Below, piece after piece: positions 7,882 through 56,878 of a stretch of 64,000 nucleotides of DNA. The notes beneath the pieces are model-generated. The model was given only the letters and a program-made list of their open reading frames with translations, was not told the origin of the DNA and ran no database searches. This DNA comes from an uncultured delta proteobacterium (GTDB taxonomy: Bacteria > Desulfobacterota > Desulfarculia > JACQYL01 > CAWGVV01): NCBI GenBank assembly GCA_963826125.1, contig CAWGVV010000002.1:356613-420612 (forward strand), read 5' to 3'. The translations under genes and the position numbers were made by a program. Numbering within the stretch: position 1 is the stretch's first letter; each line of letters starts with the position of its first letter.

Positions 7882-8121
7882 ATGCAAACAGTCGGAGCCT
7901 ACGAGGCAAAAACGCATCTCGCCCAACTCCTGGCGCGTGTAGCCAAAGGTGAAAAAATCACTATCACCAGACACGGCGTTCCTGTGGCGGTCCTGCAACC
8001 CGTCGATTCTTCTGAAAAGACGCCCGTGCGTGACGTCATCGATCAGATAAAGCAGTTCCGCAAGGGGCATCGACTTGAAGGGCTTTCCGTTCGTGAAATG
8101 ATCGAGGAAGGAAGGCGCTGA
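7882..8121 (+). CDS. vapB: Type II antitoxin, Phd/YefM family (VapB-like)
   Basis: The 79-aa product (MQTVGAYEAKTHLAQLLARVAKGEKITITRHGVPVAVLQPV...) is a classic Phd/YefM N-terminus. A GGAGG ribosome-binding site sits 8 nt upstream of the ATG at 7882. Its stop overlaps the start of the PIN gene in ATGA fashion. Confidence 0.8.
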   Translation: MQTVGAYEAKTHLAQLLARVAKGEKITITRHGVPVAVLQPVDSSEKTPVRDVIDQIKQFRKGHRLEGLSVREMIEEGRR

Positions 8122-8347
8122 TGTCTGACCGGTTCGTCGTAGACACGTCGGTGGTCATGGCTTGGTGCTTCGAAGACGAGCAGGACGGTTATGCGGAGGC
8201 TGTCATCGAGAGCCTCGAAAATCGGGAAGCCCTTGTCCCCCGCCATTTGTGGCAATGTCCTGATCATAGCGGGAAGAAGAAAGTCTCTCTGCCAGCTGAC
8301 AGGTCCATTTTCTTGCACTCTTGAACGGTTTCGCTCACCACGGTAGA
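8121..8347 (+). pseudogene. vapC: VapC (PIN-domain toxin), frameshifted and 3'-truncated
   Basis: The N-terminus MSDRFVVDTSVVMAWCFEDEQDGYAEAVIESLENREALVP matches PIN/VapC toxins, including the catalytic Asp in VDTS. After ...HLW the reading frame breaks near 8245. The +1 frame continues with VapC-like ...GNVLIIAGRRKSL... and then stops near 8347. Only about half of a ~135-aa PIN domain is present, and AT-rich foreign DNA begins right after it. Confidence 0.55.
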
Positions 8348-8504
8348 ACTGGAATTGTAGAGCGCCAATAGAACTGATTGACAGCTTTTCCTGACTACAT
8401 GTAGAATGCACAGATAAGCCGTAAGAGCACAAACCGTTTCCCTTCGTGATAATAAATCTCGTTCTCTTTAAGTTCGCGCATCATAAGTAGTGAGAATGTT
8501 CGAA

Positions 8505-9938
8505 CTACATTGCACTTCGGAATAAAGGTACCCAAGTAACAGTCCTATTTCTTCGATTCGGTCGACCAGAAACCTTTACAGGTCCTGCAGCCCAGAAAAG
8601 AGGGAGCGAAGCTTTCGGTACCGAGTGAGCAAATGCCAATGATAAACCGAGGCTTCGCATTCCTAACGCACACTCTCGCACCTTGGCATTTGGCCAATCG
8701 CCCCAACTTGCGGTATCTTTCTTCATTTTCAGGTAATTGTAGAAGAGTTGGTACCCGACTTTCTTACAGAACTGAACCGCCTTTTCCCGTTCTTTTTCAC
8801 ACGTACCCCATACTTTAGGGTTGGAGAATGCAGGTAACCTCATGTATTTTTCTGGACAAGCGATGACATCAGTTTCGCCTTCCCTACGCCAAAAATTCTT
8901 ACTAGCGAGAGATTTCTCCCCTTCGAAGGTGAGCACCCTTATTTCTTCGCCCGTATTAGAAACTTCTATGCAGTCTGAGAGACCTTGACTGTCCAAATAT
9001 TCCCGCAACACCGTGGCACCAAACTCAGAATGAACAGCAAATCTGAACTGGATGTTCTTGCCAAGAATGGAGGATGAATCACTAAGAGCGGGTATTTTTT
9101 GATTTCTTCCGGACGGGCACTTATTCAGAAGTGAGTTCAGAAGGCTTCGTGATTCAGTTGCAGAGAGGAGGCAGTCCTCAACGTAAAGAACATTTTGAGT
9201 ATTATTGTCTTCCAAACATGACCGAAGATCACTCAGAGTAGGCAACGGTTGCAACGGTTCGCTGGCTCTGAGTTCTGAGAGCTTCTTCTGAACCAAGTTC
9301 TGAATCACCCCACCGCTCTTGCCAAATTCATGAGAATTGAAGCAGATATACTGGAACCCGGAAATTTCATCTTTTTTGAGCGAAAGAGCTTCAGCAAGTC
9401 TTGGCTCTGTCCAAAAATCTAGCGACCTTAAAAGATTCTCACCAATCCACCTGTAATTGCCGAGATTTTCAAATTGCTGTATCCACTCCTTTAGGGAACC
9501 ATAAGAAATGTTACCATGGCTATATTTACTTAGAGTAGCCTCAATGCTACTAAGCCAATCTAATCTGAACTCTCCTAGAGCCTCCTTTATCCTTTCCTTC
9601 AAGAAAGCAAAATCGCTAGTACAATATTCCAATTGCCAGTTCTCGCCTCTACGCTCAGAATAAGGTATATCTTGCTGTCGGCACACAAAAATTCGAAAGT
9701 TAATGCCTTGATGTTTGGAAGTTAAGCCTTGCCTTATTGCTGTCTTGGAAAGGAGATTGTTATCACGAAGGAAATGGTTTGGAGTTTCAAGTAATATAAA
9801 GTGCTCGTCTTGATCCCATGCTGGCTTGGCATATTTATCTAGCAAATCTCGAAATTTTCGAGATTCCTTGAATGGTGTGATAATTAATATTCCCCCCCGA
9901 CGCATATTGGTATCTTCGTCAGCGACGCAGCAAAGCAT
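8505..9938 (-). CDS. Hypothetical protein (477-aa ORF), distal gene of the islet operon; no recognisable domain
   Basis: Long ORF in AT-rich DNA. Its start at 9938 overlaps the stop of the upstream ORF at 9919-9921 by 20 nt, suggesting translational coupling, although an alternative start MRRGG... lies at 9905. It has no Walker A motif and no obvious nuclease or NTase motifs. The C-terminal ~60 codons run into higher-GC DNA and may be read-through. Confidence 0.55.
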   Translation of the reverse strand: MLCCVADEDTNMRRGGILIITPFKESRKFRDLLDKYAKPAWDQDEHFILLETPNHFLRDNNLLSKTAIRQGLTSKHQGINFRIFVCRQQDIPYSERRGENWQLEYCTSDFAFLKERIKEALGEFRLDWLSSIEATLSKYSHGNISYGSLKEWIQQFENLGNYRWIGENLLRSLDFWTEPRLAEALSLKKDEISGFQYICFNSHEFGKSGGVIQNLVQKKLSELRASEPLQPLPTLSDLRSCLEDNNTQNVLYVEDCLLSATESRSLLNSLLNKCPSGRNQKIPALSDSSSILGKNIQFRFAVHSEFGATVLREYLDSQGLSDCIEVSNTGEEIRVLTFEGEKSLASKNFWRREGETDVIACPEKYMRLPAFSNPKVWGTCEKEREKAVQFCKKVGYQLFYNYLKMKKDTASWGDWPNAKVRECALGMRSLGLSLAFAHSVPKASLPLFWAAGPVKVSGRPNRRNRTVTWVPLFRSAM

Positions 9939-10797
9939 CCAACATAATCCCTAGAGGAAGCCATAGTTGGCGAAGTTCTGCTTCGCTCATGGTATCAACG
10001 CAGGCGCGGACGATTTCTCGGATGCCGGTAGGCATCGGCAAAAGGTGAGTACTGCCAGCAACTCTTTCGGGAGATAATGTTTCTTCCCTTAGTAGCTTCT
10101 TTCGCCTAAAGCCCCTCACATAAGAAGCAAACCCTTCAATCTCATCTTCATCCAATCCCAGAGATTTCAGCCTCTCTTCGAGGAACTTATTTAACATGAT
10201 CATACGCAGTGAAAGCAGGCGAGCATGGGCGGTTTTCCCTCCACGACTTCCAACTTCTTTAGAAAAAGGCAACCAGAAATTGTTTCCTTTCAGTTCAAAT
10301 TCTTCGGCGTTTTGAGGGAACTCGCTCTGTATAAAAAGAGAGGCAATTTTTCGATACTCATCTTCAGTAACCTTCTGTACCTCACAATATCCTTCTGGAA
10401 TTTCCTCCCCCTCTGATAGCACAACCAATTTTTTGTTATCCGGGGAAAAAAACAATCTCTCCCGCAACATCGGATTGCTAAACGCCCTCCAGGGGTTTTT
10501 TCTTTCGCTTTCTTTCTCTCCCGCCCCTTTAGAGACGCCAGCGGGAATGTCCCCAAGCCTTTTTCTATGTGTGTAGACGTTATCCATTCCGGATTTTCCC
10601 GTCGATATTACATTAGTGCATCTCGCTTCGATAAGGCCCCGTATTCCTCCAAACTTTTCTTTGACATCTAAATCCCTTATCTGGTCACTAAAAAATTCCC
10701 CAAGCTCAGTTCCTAAGACTTGGGGGGCAGGGTGCTTCAGGCAAAAATTTTCTATGTCTGTTACTATTCGCCCAATATTTTCATCATAACTGTCCAT
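9919..10797 (-). CDS. Hypothetical protein (~293 aa), proximal gene of the islet operon; no recognisable domain
   Basis: ORF in AT-rich DNA. The first in-frame ATG I can verify is at 10797 (MDSYDENIGRIV...), while the ORF track extends it to 10809. It is charged and helical (many E/K/R) and contains an R-x5-H stretch (RGGKTAH) whose significance is unknown. Confidence 0.55.
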   Translation of the reverse strand: MDSYDENIGRIVTDIENFCLKHPAPQVLGTELGEFFSDQIRDLDVKEKFGGIRGLIEARCTNVISTGKSGMDNVYTHRKRLGDIPAGVSKGAGEKESERKNPWRAFSNPMLRERLFFSPDNKKLVVLSEGEEIPEGYCEVQKVTEDEYRKIASLFIQSEFPQNAEEFELKGNNFWLPFSKEVGSRGGKTAHARLLSLRMIMLNKFLEERLKSLGLDEDEIEGFASYVRGFRRKKLLREETLSPERVAGSTHLLPMPTGIREIVRACVDTMSEAELRQLWLPLGIMLDALLRR

Positions 10798-10823
10798 CAC
10801 TTTCCCCACTTTTACAAAATAAA

Positions 10824-10848
10824 AAACCCACCAATTCAGTGGGTTTTA
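10824..10848. terminator. Bidirectional stem-loop (aaaaccca / tgggtttt arms) flanked by A/T runs
   Basis: An 8-bp perfect stem with a 9-nt loop. On the minus strand it is followed by TTATTTTGT, and on the plus strand it is followed by an A-run. It sits only ~15-25 nt upstream of the islet operon start. Confidence 0.45.
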
Positions 10849-11371
10849 TAAAAAAATACCGACTTTAGCTACATTATGATAAATTACTAAAATAAAATCA
10901 CCGACAAGAACAATTTTTCGTTGTATCATTGCCGTAGCCCCACGCGGAGTCCTGACGAAGGGCTCGCGATGCGAGTCATCCTTTTTTTGGACAACCCCCT
11001 AGAACTCATGCTCTAGGCGCTCCGGGAACATAAATTCCCCATCGCCAAATGTAAAATAACACCCCGACCACTCTTCGTCAAGCATTTTTGATATTGTCAA
11101 ATTTTTAGGTACAATCAAGTCCTAGAACTTAAGAAGCCGTCGATCCACGCATGCCTAAAAGATTACCTTAAGCTTGACGTGTCGTCCACGTGAATTCCTT
11201 TCGTGATGCTTTGAGCGGCTCACGATCGCCAGGTCACGGCCGACTCCTGGATATGTCAAACTTTTCAGCCTCCCCGACGAAGCCGGGGGAACACCCCTTA
11301 CGTTAGCCGCTAAGTAATACATCGACCCAAAGCGCGCTCGGTAAGTTCTTCCAGAAATCAAGGGTTATCAT

Positions 11372-32261: not shown

Positions 32262-33400
32262 AACCAGTTCCAACATGAACTATCTGCTGGAAATTTAGGA
32301 TTATAGAGTATACTATTCTTAAAATTTGCTATACGTAAATAGCCACCCGTAACAGGATAGTTAAAATGAACGACGAAATAAATAATTTCCTATCTCAGTT
32401 TCGGATGTTTTTGATAAAAGCTAATGACAGTGACCTATATGTCTATGGTGGCTACAACCCACTTGGATTACTAATGGTTAAAGAAAATCACATCGAAAGT
32501 AGAACTGTCTTCAAGCAATCCGAGTCAATATTGCGAATAGGTTGGTCAAAAATAAGCAAATTCGCTCAAAATAAAATTAAGTTTCGAGGTTGTACTATAA
32601 ATAAATATGTTTTTATTGGAAAAATATTTCGCGAAAATGCAATATTGCATGTTAAACTGACCAACAACATTACTCTTGTAGAACTAGACATTAAAAGTAA
32701 GCGTGTTTCTGTCATAGGATCAGGCAACATGAATGAGCGGTTGTTAGATTTTCTTTTAAAATTCTCCTATAATATGAGATTCACTTGCTCTTATGATTTT
32801 GAAGGAATTTTAAAACAACAAACATCAAGTGGAGGACATCAAAAGATAGATACAGTTAGAAGAAAAGTTGATCCTACGGTATTTATCTCATATTCAATAG
32901 ATTCTGAAGAACATCAAAAATGGGTGGTTAAGCTAGCTGCAGATCTTATTAGGCGAGGTGTAAGGGTGACTATCGACGAATGGGATCTCCGCTATTATAA
33001 CAACAACTTACACTACTTTATGGAGAGAGGAATCGCAAATTCAGACTTTGTCTTGATGGTTTGTACACCGGAATATGCTAAAAAGGCCGATAATAGAACA
33101 GGTGGTGTTGGTATCGAGTGTTCGATTATAACGTCGGAAATTTATAATCCAGAAAAATCAGGTAAATACTTGCCCATAGTTAAGGGGTATTCTTCTGGTA
33201 TCAACGAGTGCTTGCCTTTATTTTTAAAAACAAAAAAAGTGTTAGATTTCAATAACTACAGTAAATATGACAATAACATAGACGCCCTCTTGAGGGAAAT
33301 ATTAGACATTCCTAAATATGAGAGGCCCACATTGGGTAGATTGGTGCCACCTAGGTCGATTCGAGTTTAAACCGAAACAGCAAGCTAACTCCAGAGAATT
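32262..33400. other. AT-rich single-gene islet (putative horizontal insertion)
   Basis: Composition is markedly AT-rich between the ABC ATPase start and the SDR stop. It contains only the TIR-domain ORF. I did not recognise an integrase, a tRNA or clear direct repeats. Confidence 0.55.
32366..33370 (+). CDS. TIR-domain protein: unknown ~165-aa N-terminal domain plus C-terminal TIR domain
   Basis: The C-terminal half (PTVFISYSIDSEEHQKWVVKLAADLIRRGVRVTIDEWDLRYYNNNLHYFMERGIANSDFVLMVCTPEYAKKADNRTGGVGIECSIITSEIY) has the TIR hallmarks. These are a betaA strand F-I-S-Y-S, a W-containing alphaA, and a conserved Glu in GxGIECS. An AGGATAG ribosome-binding site precedes the ATG. Confidence 0.75.
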   Translation: MNDEINNFLSQFRMFLIKANDSDLYVYGGYNPLGLLMVKENHIESRTVFKQSESILRIGWSKISKFAQNKIKFRGCTINKYVFIGKIFRENAILHVKLTNNITLVELDIKSKRVSVIGSGNMNERLLDFLLKFSYNMRFTCSYDFEGILKQQTSSGGHQKIDTVRRKVDPTVFISYSIDSEEHQKWVVKLAADLIRRGVRVTIDEWDLRYYNNNLHYFMERGIANSDFVLMVCTPEYAKKADNRTGGVGIECSIITSEIYNPEKSGKYLPIVKGYSSGINECLPLFLKTKKVLDFNNYSKYDNNIDALLREILDIPKYERPTLGRLVPPRSIRV

Positions 33401-35374: not shown

Positions 35375-35860
35375 ATGGCCAAAAGCATAGTGAAAATACA
35401 GCCTCTCTCCGCGCTCAGGGAAGCCAGAAAATTTCTGCGGCGGCAAAAGAAGACCGTGGTGTTCACCAACGGCTGTTTCGACCTGCTGCACGCGGGCCAT
35501 GTGCGCTACCTGGAGGCGGCTTCCGAACTGGGAGATTACCTCATCGTGGCGGTGAATTCCGACCGGTCGGTGCGGGGGATCAAGACGCCCGACCGGCCCG
35601 TCAACCGGGAGCAGTATCGGGCGGAAGTCGTGGCAGCGCTGGGATTCGTCGACGCAGTGATCATCTTCGACGACGAAACGCCCTTCGCCCTCATTCAGGC
35701 GCTGGAACCGGACGTGCTGGTGAAGGGGGCCGATTGGCCGCTCGAGGGCATCGTGGGGCGGGACATCGTGGAGGCCGCGGGAGGCCGCGTGGTGCGCGTG
35801 CCGCTCACCGAGGGCCTTTCCACCACGGCCATCATCGAAAAAATACGGCGGGGTGCCTGA
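35375..35860 (+). CDS. D-glycero-beta-D-manno-heptose 1-phosphate adenylyltransferase (RfaE/HldE domain II-like cytidylyltransferase)
   Basis: TNGCFDLLHAGHVRYLEAA is the nucleotidyltransferase (H/T)xGH motif, and the sequence is family-typical throughout (...LIVAVNSDRSV...). I placed the start at MAKSIVKI. Confidence 0.8.
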   Translation: MAKSIVKIQPLSALREARKFLRRQKKTVVFTNGCFDLLHAGHVRYLEAASELGDYLIVAVNSDRSVRGIKTPDRPVNREQYRAEVVAALGFVDAVIIFDDETPFALIQALEPDVLVKGADWPLEGIVGRDIVEAAGGRVVRVPLTEGLSTTAIIEKIRRGA

Positions 35861-36423
35861 AACGGATTATAAAAACGGTGTGCCGAGTATTTCCCTGAGG
35901 CTGCGGTTCATCTCTTCCTGTTCACCACCTTCCTCGGCAGCGATTGCTTCCGGCGTACCGAGTGTTTTCCTCCCTACGCACAGCAGAGCCTGCCATTTCG
36001 AGCGGTAGCGGAAAATCTCCCATGATACCATGTGATTTCTCGAGATTTCTCTCTCCGCTTCGCTCCGTTCGAAATGGCAAGCCGTCGGCTCACAGCTCCT
36101 GCCCCGTCCAGTGCCGGTTATGGAATACGAAGGAAGCCGAGCCCCCGTGCGGAATGACATGCTACGGTTTGCTCATGGCGTGGATCGCCCATCGCCTCTG
36201 CTTTTCCGTGCCTTTCTTTCCGCCTGGGGGGGTCGATAAAAGAGCGTTTTCCCATGTTCGCCATTTCGGTTGAAGATAAAATACAGTATTTTAAGGTACT
36301 TATTGACAACAGCTTTCGCCGGGTGACGTTTGGAAAGGCTTTATCGACAATCTCCTTGTGAAGGGGGCGATCAGAGCAGAACACTATTACCGGTAGTTCC
36401 CGAAGCAGCGAGTGCGGATGGAG

Positions 36424-36440
36424 TGATAATTGACAATTAT
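36424..36440. promoter_or_regulatory. Palindromic motif copy 1 (TGATAATTGACAATTAT)
   Basis: A 7-1-7 inverted repeat (ATAATTG-N-CAATTAT). It is one of three near-identical copies in a 1.25-kb region that lacks a convincing CDS. Confidence 0.4.
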
Positions 36441-36681
36441 AAATTTTCTTCTCCCGACCGATGGTCGTTCGCACATTTTCAGAAGGAAACCGCTCGTTGC
36501 CTTTACCGAAGATACCGTCGAGGCGGTCAGCAGCTTAGCTGCCGCCCATTCCCATCTTCGAAAGATTTAGAAGCTCATAGCTCTCTGGCGTTCTTTCCGG
36601 AGCATGTTTGATCTCGTTTCGTCGACGTCGACAAGGATGAAAGAAGCTCCGTGGCTCGAATCAGGCTGCATCCAAAACGAT

Positions 36682-36698
36682 TGATAATTGTCAATCAT
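36682..36698. promoter_or_regulatory. Palindromic motif copy 2 (TGATAATTGTCAATCAT)
   Basis: Same motif as at 36424, on the same strand and in the same orientation. Confidence 0.4.
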
Positions 36699-36873
36699 CA
36701 CTCTATCGTTCATGACAAGGAGGATAAAGCCCAGTACTCCCCTCGTTGGAAGCCCATGAGGGAATTGTCCAATCGGTCCGGTGGGTAAAAAACGATGAGA
36801 AAAATCGACTCGGACAGGAAAGATGGAGCACTCTTCGGTTGGTTAGTCGTCTCGACATCTCGTTTCAAATGAT

Positions 36874-36890
36874 TGATGATTGTCAATTAT
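36874..36890. promoter_or_regulatory. Palindromic motif copy 3 (TGATGATTGTCAATTAT)
   Basis: Same motif again. An adjacent GATTGAT direct-repeat half-site precedes it. Confidence 0.4.
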
Positions 36891-37111
36891 AGCTTAATCC
36901 CACTCCGGTGGGAAGAAATGGATATGCTCACGGTTGTCCCCGGAACGAAACCGGTCGCAAGGGAAGGACTCACCGGAAAGTCAAGGCATAGGTAGATTTT
37001 CCGGACGTTATCCCTCCTAGGAAAGGACCGGATCGAAAGATGCTCCATTCCCTCTTCCGGGTTCTCCCGGAACGGCGGGGCACGGTAAAACTTTTCGTGT
37101 GCCAACATTCC

Positions 37112-37759
37112 TCAGTGGCGGTGTTCCGCGGCCGGAACGTCTTCCGTCTCTTCAAAATCCTTGTCGTAGGAAAATACCCCCGGCTTGACCCCCTTCCACT
37201 TCGGGTCGTACAGATGGCGGAACGGTAAAGCCATTGTTTCGCGAAGCACGGTTTGCCAGGTGGTGCATCCGGCGTATGCGTAAGCAAGGGAGGGGTGCGG
37301 AACGGCTCGAACGGCCCCTCCGTTCGGGATGAATTCCGAAACTTCCATGAATTCCCTGTTGCCCGCCTGATCCACCTGCCAGAAAACGAGATCGTGAAAG
37401 TATACGGCCGTGATCAGCCGCTCCCCATCCCGGGTGCTCACCTTGAAGCGGATTCCCGGCCGCCGCTTGCCGGGAATGACGTAGCGGTATTCCGCCAGGG
37501 AAAAGTCGTCGAAGCGAAGCATCATGTCCAGCATCTGTTCGATGCGCTCGTACCGGTTGCGGTCCTCTATCTTTACCGGTTCGATGTTCCGGGAGATTGC
37601 CGCCGCCACCGCGCCCGCTTCCAGGGCAAAATCCGCGAGTAACCGCTTGAGGGGATTTTCTTCAAACGTCGGCGACAAATCCGGGCGCGGAAGCCGTTTC
37701 GTAATGAGTTCGTTGATTCTCCCGGCCCACTGTTCGTATTCGGACGCGGTATCCTTCAT
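37112..37759 (-). CDS. Hypothetical protein (function unknown), downstream of serC
   Basis: A 215-aa ORF from the internal Met (MKDTASEYEQW...). It shares strand and immediate adjacency with serC. I recognised no motif. Confidence 0.45.
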   Translation of the reverse strand: MKDTASEYEQWAGRINELITKRLPRPDLSPTFEENPLKRLLADFALEAGAVAAAISRNIEPVKIEDRNRYERIEQMLDMMLRFDDFSLAEYRYVIPGKRRPGIRFKVSTRDGERLITAVYFHDLVFWQVDQAGNREFMEVSEFIPNGGAVRAVPHPSLAYAYAGCTTWQTVLRETMALPFRHLYDPKWKGVKPGVFSYDKDFEETEDVPAAEHRH

Positions 37760-43777: not shown

Positions 43778-43920
43778 ACGACGGCGGGCAAAAAGAAGGG
43801 CGGCCTTTTCCGGCCGCCCGATTCTGTTGATAAAGCATTGCGAGCCGTCACCCGGGCGAAAGGCTCACCGCGGAATTTCGGGAAGTGCTTTTTCTTTGGC
43901 AGAGTGAAAGTCGCTCTTTT

Positions 43921-55903: not shown

Positions 55904-56878
55904 ATGAAAGTGGCAATTCAGATCGACAAGGGAAAATACCTCGAAATGTACAGAACCATGGTCCGCATCAGAGGCTTCGAAGAAAATGTGGAGCGGCTGT
56001 TCGCGGGAGGAAGGATCCCCGGGTTCGTCCACCTTTACATCGGACAGGAAGCGGTTGCCACCGGCGTGTGCGCAGCCCTGCGGGAAGACGACTACATCAC
56101 CAGCACTCATCGGGGCCACGGCCACTGTGTGGCGAAAGGCGGACGAGTCAGAGAGATGTTCGCCGAAATTTACGGAAAAAGCACCGGATACTGTAAGGGC
56201 AAAGGCGGTTCCATGCACATTGCCGCCGTTGAAAAAGGCATCCTGGGCGCGAACGGCATCGTGGGCGGAGGCCTCACCCTGGTGAACGGGGTTGCATTCT
56301 CGGCGCAATATCGGGGCACCGATCAGGTGGCCGTCTGCTTCTTCGGCGACGGCGCCAGCAACAATGCCACGTTTCACGAGGGGGTCAATCTGGCGTCAGT
56401 CTGGAACCTGCCCGTGGTGTTCGTCTGTGAGAACAATGGGTTCGGCATGTCGGTGCCGCAAAAGCACCATCAGAAGATCAACGACGTGGCGGAACGGGCG
56501 GGGGCCTACGGAATCCCCGGAGTAGTCATCGACGGCAACGACATCATGTGCGTGTATGAAACGGCACGGGAAGCCGTCTCGAGAGCACGCAGGGGCCTCG
56601 GGCCCACGTTGATCGAGTGCAAGACCTTTCGGCATAAAGGCCATTTCCAGGGCGATGCCGATGTTTACCGGGACCAGGAGGTTGTCCGCCGGTGGATCGA
56701 AGAACGCGATCCCATCAATAGATACCGGCAGTACCTGCTGGGGTCCGATCACTGCACGGCGGGAGAACTGGCAACTATCGACGACGAGGTGCAAAACGAA
56801 ATCGTGGACGCCATCCGCTTCGCGGAGGAGAGCCCTTTTCCGCGGCCCGAGGAAACCCTTGAAGATGTGTACGCGTAA
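55904..56878 (+). CDS. acoA: Acetoin:DCPIP oxidoreductase / 2-oxoacid dehydrogenase E1 alpha subunit (TPP-dependent)
   Basis: It has the TPP-binding motif region (GDGASNNATFHEGVNLA...NNGFGMS) and the typical AcoA N-terminus (YRTMVRIRGFEE). Confidence 0.8.
   Translation: MKVAIQIDKGKYLEMYRTMVRIRGFEENVERLFAGGRIPGFVHLYIGQEAVATGVCAALREDDYITSTHRGHGHCVAKGGRVREMFAEIYGKSTGYCKGKGGSMHIAAVEKGILGANGIVGGGLTLVNGVAFSAQYRGTDQVAVCFFGDGASNNATFHEGVNLASVWNLPVVFVCENNGFGMSVPQKHHQKINDVAERAGAYGIPGVVIDGNDIMCVYETAREAVSRARRGLGPTLIECKTFRHKGHFQGDADVYRDQEVVRRWIEERDPINRYRQYLLGSDHCTAGELATIDDEVQNEIVDAIRFAEESPFPRPEETLEDVYA

Follow-up and report, generated by a model that had tools for sequence, protein, structure and literature searches.

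We have analysed a 64,000-nucleotide stretch of DNA from an uncultured delta proteobacterium (contig CAWGVV010000002.1, positions 356,613 to 420,612; this whole stretch is called the window below, and all positions are counted within it), and we have found that the span at 35861-37111 is non-coding, is lineage-specific as judged from the relatives compared, and carries three copies of an AT-rich palindromic box. Our preferred reading, to which we assign a probability of roughly 0.35 on the grounds of sequence features, is that the three boxes are putative operator/promoter modules, that is, duplex binding sites for one dimeric DNA-binding protein. The boxes have the form of ordinary bacterial operator palindromes and nothing points to a new kind of system, and we regard a relic as nearly as likely as a working site.

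The three boxes and the partial sites that accompany them are located as follows:

36417-36444, minus strand: box copy 1, reading ATTTATAATTGTCAATTATCACTCCATC on the minus strand, with its core palindrome at 36424-36442 (similarity E 0.005)
36675-36707, plus strand: box copy 2, AAACGATTGATAATTGTCAATCATCACTCTATC
36867-36899, plus strand: box copy 3, AAATGATTGATGATTGTCAATTATAGCTTAATC, 79% identical to copy 2
36299-36310, plus strand: partial site CTTATTGACAAC
36343-36351, plus strand: second partial site ATCGACAAT

When the window was searched with ATAATTGNCAATTAT at up to two mismatches, matches were obtained only at 36426, 36684 and 36876. As only 0.07 matches are expected by chance and three were reached in none of 100 dinucleotide-preserving shuffles, the box repeat is real and non-random, and the claim of an earlier note on this DNA that three discrete copies of a palindrome occur here is well founded. 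Relaxing the search to the 17-nt palindrome form at up to three mismatches added a single match in the window, an unrelated site at 56763. The exact pattern proposed in the earlier note does capture three copies, with the reservation that copy 3 (TGATGATTG) deviates from it by one mismatch. The partial sites cluster near the boxes, as 6 of the 14 window matches to ATTGWCAAT (at up to one mismatch) fall within 36302-36887; the first of these sites had been described as a half-site at 36312, and its true position is 36299-36310.

Other parts of that description had to be amended. The repeat was said to be 17 bp long and to have the same orientation in all copies, but comparison of copy with copy gave a conserved unit of 28-33 nt, with the consensus AAAyGATTGATrATTGTCAATyATmrCTyyATC, and showed copy 1 to be inverted relative to copies 2 and 3. 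The direction of each copy is set by its flanks around the palindrome: over 28 nt, copies 1 and 2 are 89% identical on opposite strands and 64% on the same strand, and they form an inverted pair with 235 nt between its members. The boxes are 192 and 258 bp apart. The core of copy 2, TGATAATTGTCAATCATCA (36682-36700), is a 9-1-9 inverted repeat with one pair mismatched, and the six halves taken together yield the half-site TGATRATTG and the ideal site TGATAATTG-N-CAATTATCA.

The likeness between boxes, which is 79-89% in pairwise comparisons over 28-33 nt, ends abruptly, and the sequence just outside is at chance level. The flanks had been reported as not repeated, and this is correct save for at most a weak residual similarity (z 2-3), the faint signal being found downstream of copies 1 and 2 (CAAGGAG[ATTGTC]GATAAAGCC, z ~3 against mononucleotide shuffles). 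Because neutral decay of a duplicated segment would erode flanks and boxes alike, the boxes either are under constraint or came in as discrete units.

The span that contains the boxes and the other features in and around it are the following:

35861-37111: non-coding spacer between two convergent genes, GC ~0.50 against ~0.59 in its flanks
35375-35860, plus strand: left gene, cytidylyltransferase-like (hldE domain II-like; PF01467, E 1e-17), its stop adjoining the spacer
37112-37759, minus strand: right gene, encoding a 215-amino-acid (aa) hypothetical protein downstream of serC, with no Pfam match, its stop adjoining the spacer
35867-36031, minus strand: orphan open reading frame (ORF) of 54 aa (P0129), called by public annotation, whose sole match is itself
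35986-36082: long imperfect hairpin of ~97 nt, GCCTGCCATTTCGAGCGG ... CCGTTCGAAATGGCAAGC, resembling repetitive extragenic palindromic (REP) elements or miniature inverted-repeat transposable elements (MITEs), DNA z -5.4
36313-36349, plus strand, with an inverted copy at 43825-43862: 38-nt dispersed repeat, 82% identity, E 0.005 in the window

The flanking genes end at 35860 (plus strand) and 37112 (minus strand), which confirms that a gene-free region of ~1.25 kb separates the hldE-like gene from the tail of the serC operon, as the earlier note had stated. They leave room for several small ORFs, which were said to have no coding character; Pfam, codon-usage and homology searches all agree with this and none of these ORFs is a conserved gene. 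The GC content at third codon positions (GC3) of the ORFs in the span is 0.39-0.62, compared to 0.72-0.82 in the neighbouring genes, so that no codon bias is seen, and a Pfam scan of three of them (93-118 codons, including the two longest) gave no match. In addition, the concatenated six-frame translation of the span had no match at E<=1 in a set of 5.8 billion proteins, and an exhaustive phmmer search with 11 span ORFs against 1.84 billion cluster representatives returned a single match, which was the 54-aa ORF hitting itself (100%). This ORF is enclosed by one of 97 codons (35867-36160) with a GC3 of 0.59 and no codon bias, and it is probably a false gene call. No tRNA or tmRNA was found in the span, and with Rfam 15 no family reached the gathering score in the window or E<=10 in 35700-37300. 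The span is therefore non-coding. A likeness of the boxes, read as a coding start "MIIDNYQ", to the start of an Mth938-like gene of Desulfoferrobacter (L113) was an artefact of the design of the search pattern and was discarded. The hairpin at 35986-36082, which has no relation to the boxes, is the sole significantly structured element of the span (z about -4 to -5). As for the 38-nt repeat, its distant copy lies just past the terminator of an EAL/HDOD gene, and both copies carry GATAAAGC and a CCCGG(G)CGAAAG segment.

The comparison with relatives indicates that the span is not conserved. The 215-aa neighbour has 8 homologues in the protein collection, one of them identical and the best others with 53-54% identity. 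In three metagenomic contigs (L004-L006) the two genes are convergent neighbours as well, separated by just 42 bp, while in another relative (L002) the gap is ~1.55 kb and is filled with unrelated content, namely an extra gene of the PNPOx family and several hairpin repeats, and contains no box. More distant homologues of the 215-aa protein have other gene neighbours, and no site comparable to the box motif was present in the loci of relatives that were examined. As the relatives have either 42 bp or other inserts at this place, the junction is one where insertions accumulate, the 1.25 kb being one of them, and the lower GC content of the span fits an insertion. Judged by its RecA, the organism belongs to an uncultured lineage that is closest, among named relatives, to Desulfuromonadales (~77% identity). 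Searches in other DNA were equally negative, as plasmid and phage records contained no DNA similar to the span and a 27-nt box pattern had no match in the Joint Genome Institute (JGI) metagenomes. The box pattern was found 47 times in reference genomes and 81 times in viral contigs, always as singletons that are chance matches in AT-rich DNA, and none of the reference genomes has a locus with three. Finally, a literature search for the motif strings retrieved only primers and unrelated sequences.

The reading of the boxes as operator/promoter modules draws on their overlap with promoter-like sequences. Three sigma-70-like matches occur in the region, when 0.8 +/- 1.0 are expected, and all of them lie on boxes 2 and 3; they include the following two, both of them consensus matches only:

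36681-36709, plus strand: TTGATA-17-TATCGT, 9 of 12 positions
36886-36914, minus strand: TTCCCA-17-TATAAT, 10 of 12 positions

The block conserved between copies 1 and 2 (36680-36707, 28 nt) approximately coincides with the TTGATA-17-TATCGT match of copy 2, and the TATAAT -10 lies inside box 3, where the minus-strand match that includes it faces the match of copy 2. As single strands the boxes fold weakly (-1.5, -4.5, and -2.5 kcal/mol; z -0.7, -2.1, and -0.6, none of them significant), which suggests that they would act as duplex sites and makes it unlikely that they work as hairpins in the way of REP elements or IS200. Each putative site would lie within an asymmetric module of ~29 bp, the size of a core promoter from -35 to -10, and protein bound there would cover the -35 element and the spacer and so gate transcription from the boxes. 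Transcription is predicted to proceed leftward at copy 1 and rightward at copies 2 and 3, with the TATAAT in copy 3 perhaps giving a further leftward start. As the span contains no gene, what would be transcribed is short non-coding RNA, or RNA that is antisense to the 3' ends of the convergent genes on either side. That the boxes are bound by a protein, act as promoters and give rise to any transcript is inferred here.

A precedent for such an arrangement came from metagenomes. A scan with the ideal palindrome TGATRATTGNCAATYATCA gave at least 120 matches; of those listed, some are in coding sequences, others are runs of CAATTGN-type 7-nt repeats, and a few are isolated palindromes. Among them, a contig with 66% GC (L210, Ga0209640_10010337) contains in its segment 212-531 a perfect 23-bp palindrome, AGTGATAATTGTCAATTATCACT, located 22 bp upstream of a higB-higA operon. 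This palindrome contains TTGACA, shares 19 identical bases with box copy 1 and is probably the operator of the higBA toxin-antitoxin promoter of that contig, so that a palindrome nearly identical to the boxes does occur at a regulated promoter. Regarding the 7-nt repeats, short AT-rich runs of them (CAATTGA, CAATTGT, CAATTAT) were seen in intergenic DNA of six otherwise GC-rich contigs (L165, L186, L174, L233, L225, and L146), in some cases between tRNA genes and in others immediately upstream of a gene.

Several observations weigh against the boxes being operator/promoter modules. No regulator gene adjoins the span, and the sole candidate regulator identified among the window genes is a LacI-family gene ~18 kb away; the usual operators of this family are not known to resemble the box motif. 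In the remaining 63 kb of the window, no gene is preceded by a further copy of the motif. The absence of the span from relatives with the same gene pair indicates that it is not conserved as a regulatory hub; a multi-operator hub was one of the roles considered for it in the earlier note. A reasonable -10 exists in copy 2 only, as copies 1 and 3 do not have the T at position 6. The suggestion that the span encodes one or more small RNAs (sRNAs) found no support either: terminator-like sites in the region number 2 against 2.1 expected, none of them convincing, a sliding fold analysis downstream of the boxes gave z values from -2.8 to +0.9 and no structured RNA, and the span has no Rfam match. 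Furthermore, the higBA context was seen only once in at least 120 metagenomic matches, most of which are irrelevant, and HigBA was not encoded near any other of the matches listed.

A more elaborate version of the operator/promoter reading, which we consider quite unlikely, is that the span is a lineage-specific regulatory RNA locus, in which recently acquired non-coding DNA would have been wired to a host regulator that gates three promoters. Plus-strand copy 2 and the minus-strand TATAAT of copy 3, which face each other at a distance of ~180 nt, would then give overlapping sense and antisense RNAs, and two further transcripts, directed outward, would overlap the 3' ends of the convergent flanking genes in antisense. 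If this were true, the locus might tune the gene similar to lipopolysaccharide-sugar nucleotidyltransferases and the tail of the serC operon.

The closest competitor of the operator/promoter reading is that an accessory or mobile element once inserted here and has decayed to the present span, leaving boxes that have no purpose for the host; we regard this as possible but somewhat doubtful. According to this, the boxes could have belonged to the control region of a toxin-antitoxin or prophage cassette that has since been lost. They could also derive from a miniature element of 291 bp whose terminal inverted repeats are copies 1 and 2, copy 3 then being a solo end. The earlier note had also mentioned a mobile-element remnant, and the idea is supported to some degree, as the whole 1.25 kb is missing from L004-L006, the same spot in L002 is occupied by unrelated hairpin repeats and an extra gene, the GC content departs from that of the flanks, and the span also contains the unrelated hairpin and the short dispersed repeat listed above. 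Copies 1 and 2, as a 28-nt inverted pair, would suit the ends of a MITE, but there is no target-site duplication around 36417 and 36707 and no sibling was found in the window, genome, viral and metagenome scans, the only hits being the chance singletons already mentioned in reference genomes and viral contigs. The boxes also resemble REP elements, bacterial interspersed mosaic elements (BIMEs) and MITEs in being short imperfect palindromes of alternating orientation, placed between convergent genes at a spot that collects insertions; they differ from these elements in being AT-rich, in forming weak hairpins, in being spaced 192-258 bp apart, in showing no target-site duplication and in having no copy outside 36300-36900 in the 64 kb. 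A similar palindrome at the higBA promoter of L210 could favour the toxin-antitoxin variant, and the operators of type II toxin-antitoxin systems (HigA/XRE) are likewise AT-rich inverted repeats of 17-23 bp that overlap promoter elements. However, such operators come in one or two adjacent copies, whereas here three boxes are dispersed with no adjoining toxin, antitoxin or regulator gene and with no such gene pair downstream of the palindrome. A toxin-antitoxin remnant in the span was rejected, as tblastn with the HigB and HigA of L210 found nothing there and no coding remnant was detected by Pfam, six-frame or phmmer searches; the same searches speak against pseudogene traces of any other cassette, and no similarity to plasmids or phages was seen. 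Moreover, uniform neutral decay fails to explain why the boxes alone have survived. Another and unlikely alternative is that the boxes are what is left, without function, of a 7-nt AT-rich repeat (CAATTGN or CAATTAT type), their palindrome being a by-product of a self-complementary AATT that recurs every 7 nt. In fact, each box can be split into about four 7-nt units (GATTGAT AATTGTC AATCATC ACTCTAT) and many of the metagenomic palindrome matches listed are runs of such units in intergenic DNA. On the other hand, Tandem Repeats Finder detects no repeat in the region at a score as low as 30, no such arrays exist elsewhere in the window, and the boxes agree position by position, including their non-repetitive right flank (CACTCyATC), which is unlike the independent decay of microsatellites.

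The boxes could also be assigned to a known regulon, and we hold it improbable that they are sites of the Fur family or of the CRP/FNR family (HcpR-type, TTGAC-N4-GTCAA) driving regulated sRNAs in the manner of PrrF1/PrrF2 or FnrS. PrrF1 and PrrF2 are small RNAs controlled by Fur, and FnrS is one controlled by FNR; like the tandem PrrF1/PrrF2 genes under their Fur sites, the boxes occur in several copies in a gene-free stretch, but no sRNA family, terminator, structure or other small-RNA signature was found in the span. The Fur box (19-bp GATAATGATAATCATTATC, or TGATAAT-N-ATTATCA in the 7-1-7 model) is an AT-rich palindrome as well, and the outer half-site of the boxes, TGATAAT, is identical to the Fur 7-mer of that model. 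However, the half-sites are 5 nt apart in the boxes and 1 nt in the 7-1-7 site, and the best window matches to the 19-bp form (13-14/19) and to the 7-1-7 form (11/14) are located elsewhere, with the boxes outside the top eight, so that the poor fit to the Fur consensus noticed earlier is real. Regarding the CRP/FNR family, the HcpR motif wyTTGACnnnnGTCAArw has been proposed for Geobacter and Desulfuromonas (PMC1274295), and the Desulfuromonadales-like RecA agrees with such an assignment. Copies 2 and 3 hold TTGAT-N4-GTCAA, which matches the FNR box (TTGAT-N4-ATCAA) and the HcpR motif at 9/10 positions, and copy 1 matches at 8/10, but 9/10 matches to FNR-type patterns also arise by chance in the coding DNA of the window, and the FNR-type dyad is shifted by 3.5 bp relative to the stronger dyad of the boxes (8-1-8 or 9-1-9). 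In addition, no -10-like hexamer lies 22-27 nt past the dyad in any copy, as would be expected for a site centred at -41.5, and no target gene (hcp, frdX) follows the boxes. The hcp clusters of relatives L002 and L004 do not have the motif, which also speaks against an HcpR site. Sites of LysR-type regulators follow a T-N11-A pattern, which is ATAA-N7-TTAT in the case of CcpC, and the box core ATAA-TTGTCAA-TTAT fits both; this resemblance is generic, and no divergent LysR-type gene or target gene adjoins the boxes. A sigma-54 promoter with upstream activator sites is excluded, as there is no sigma-54 promoter in the span. Very unlikely, finally, is a replication element, either a chromosomal or integrated origin whose repeats bind the initiator or a fork trap of opposed terminator sites. 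Up to 34.3 kb, twenty genes in a row are on the minus strand, and those that follow are mostly on the plus strand, the cumulative GC skew has its minimum at ~24-26 kb, the span is the only large non-coding stretch of lower GC near this strand switch, and the boxes occur in both orientations. Nevertheless, DnaA boxes are not enriched (one one-mismatch match in the span, and 14 in the window against 8.4 expected), no dnaA, dnaN or par genes are present in the window, the origin-like polarity argues against a terminus trap, relatives with the same flanking genes do without the span, and spacings of 192 and 258 bp are unlike those of iterons.

What the locus would teach depends on which of these explanations holds. 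If the boxes are bound, as in the operator/promoter reading, they would provide a clean and strong consensus, TGATAATTG-N-CAATTATCA, for a regulator in an uncultured lineage related to Desulfuromonadales, and an example of non-coding DNA gained at a convergent junction and put under regulation; this would be of use for annotation and would establish no new principle. If they are relics, the locus merely illustrates the small insertions at convergent-gene junctions that are already well known.

Some other features of the window deserve mention in their own right. The strand switch near 34.3-34.7 kb, together with the minimum of the GC skew, amounts to an origin-like change of polarity with neither dnaA or dnaN nor a cluster of DnaA boxes. 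A low-GC islet (0.41-0.46) at 8043-11000 contains a PRTase-CE domain protein and two ORFs with no family matches, and a Fic-domain protein encoded at 48056-49102 matches the SoFic defence model (E 5e-39). Finally, an anti-phage defence gene with a bSEFIR/TIR domain (PADLOC bSEFIR, E 6e-64) is located at 32366-33370 in an islet with a GC content of 0.33, in a genome of ~59% GC, and this gene was probably acquired by horizontal transfer.

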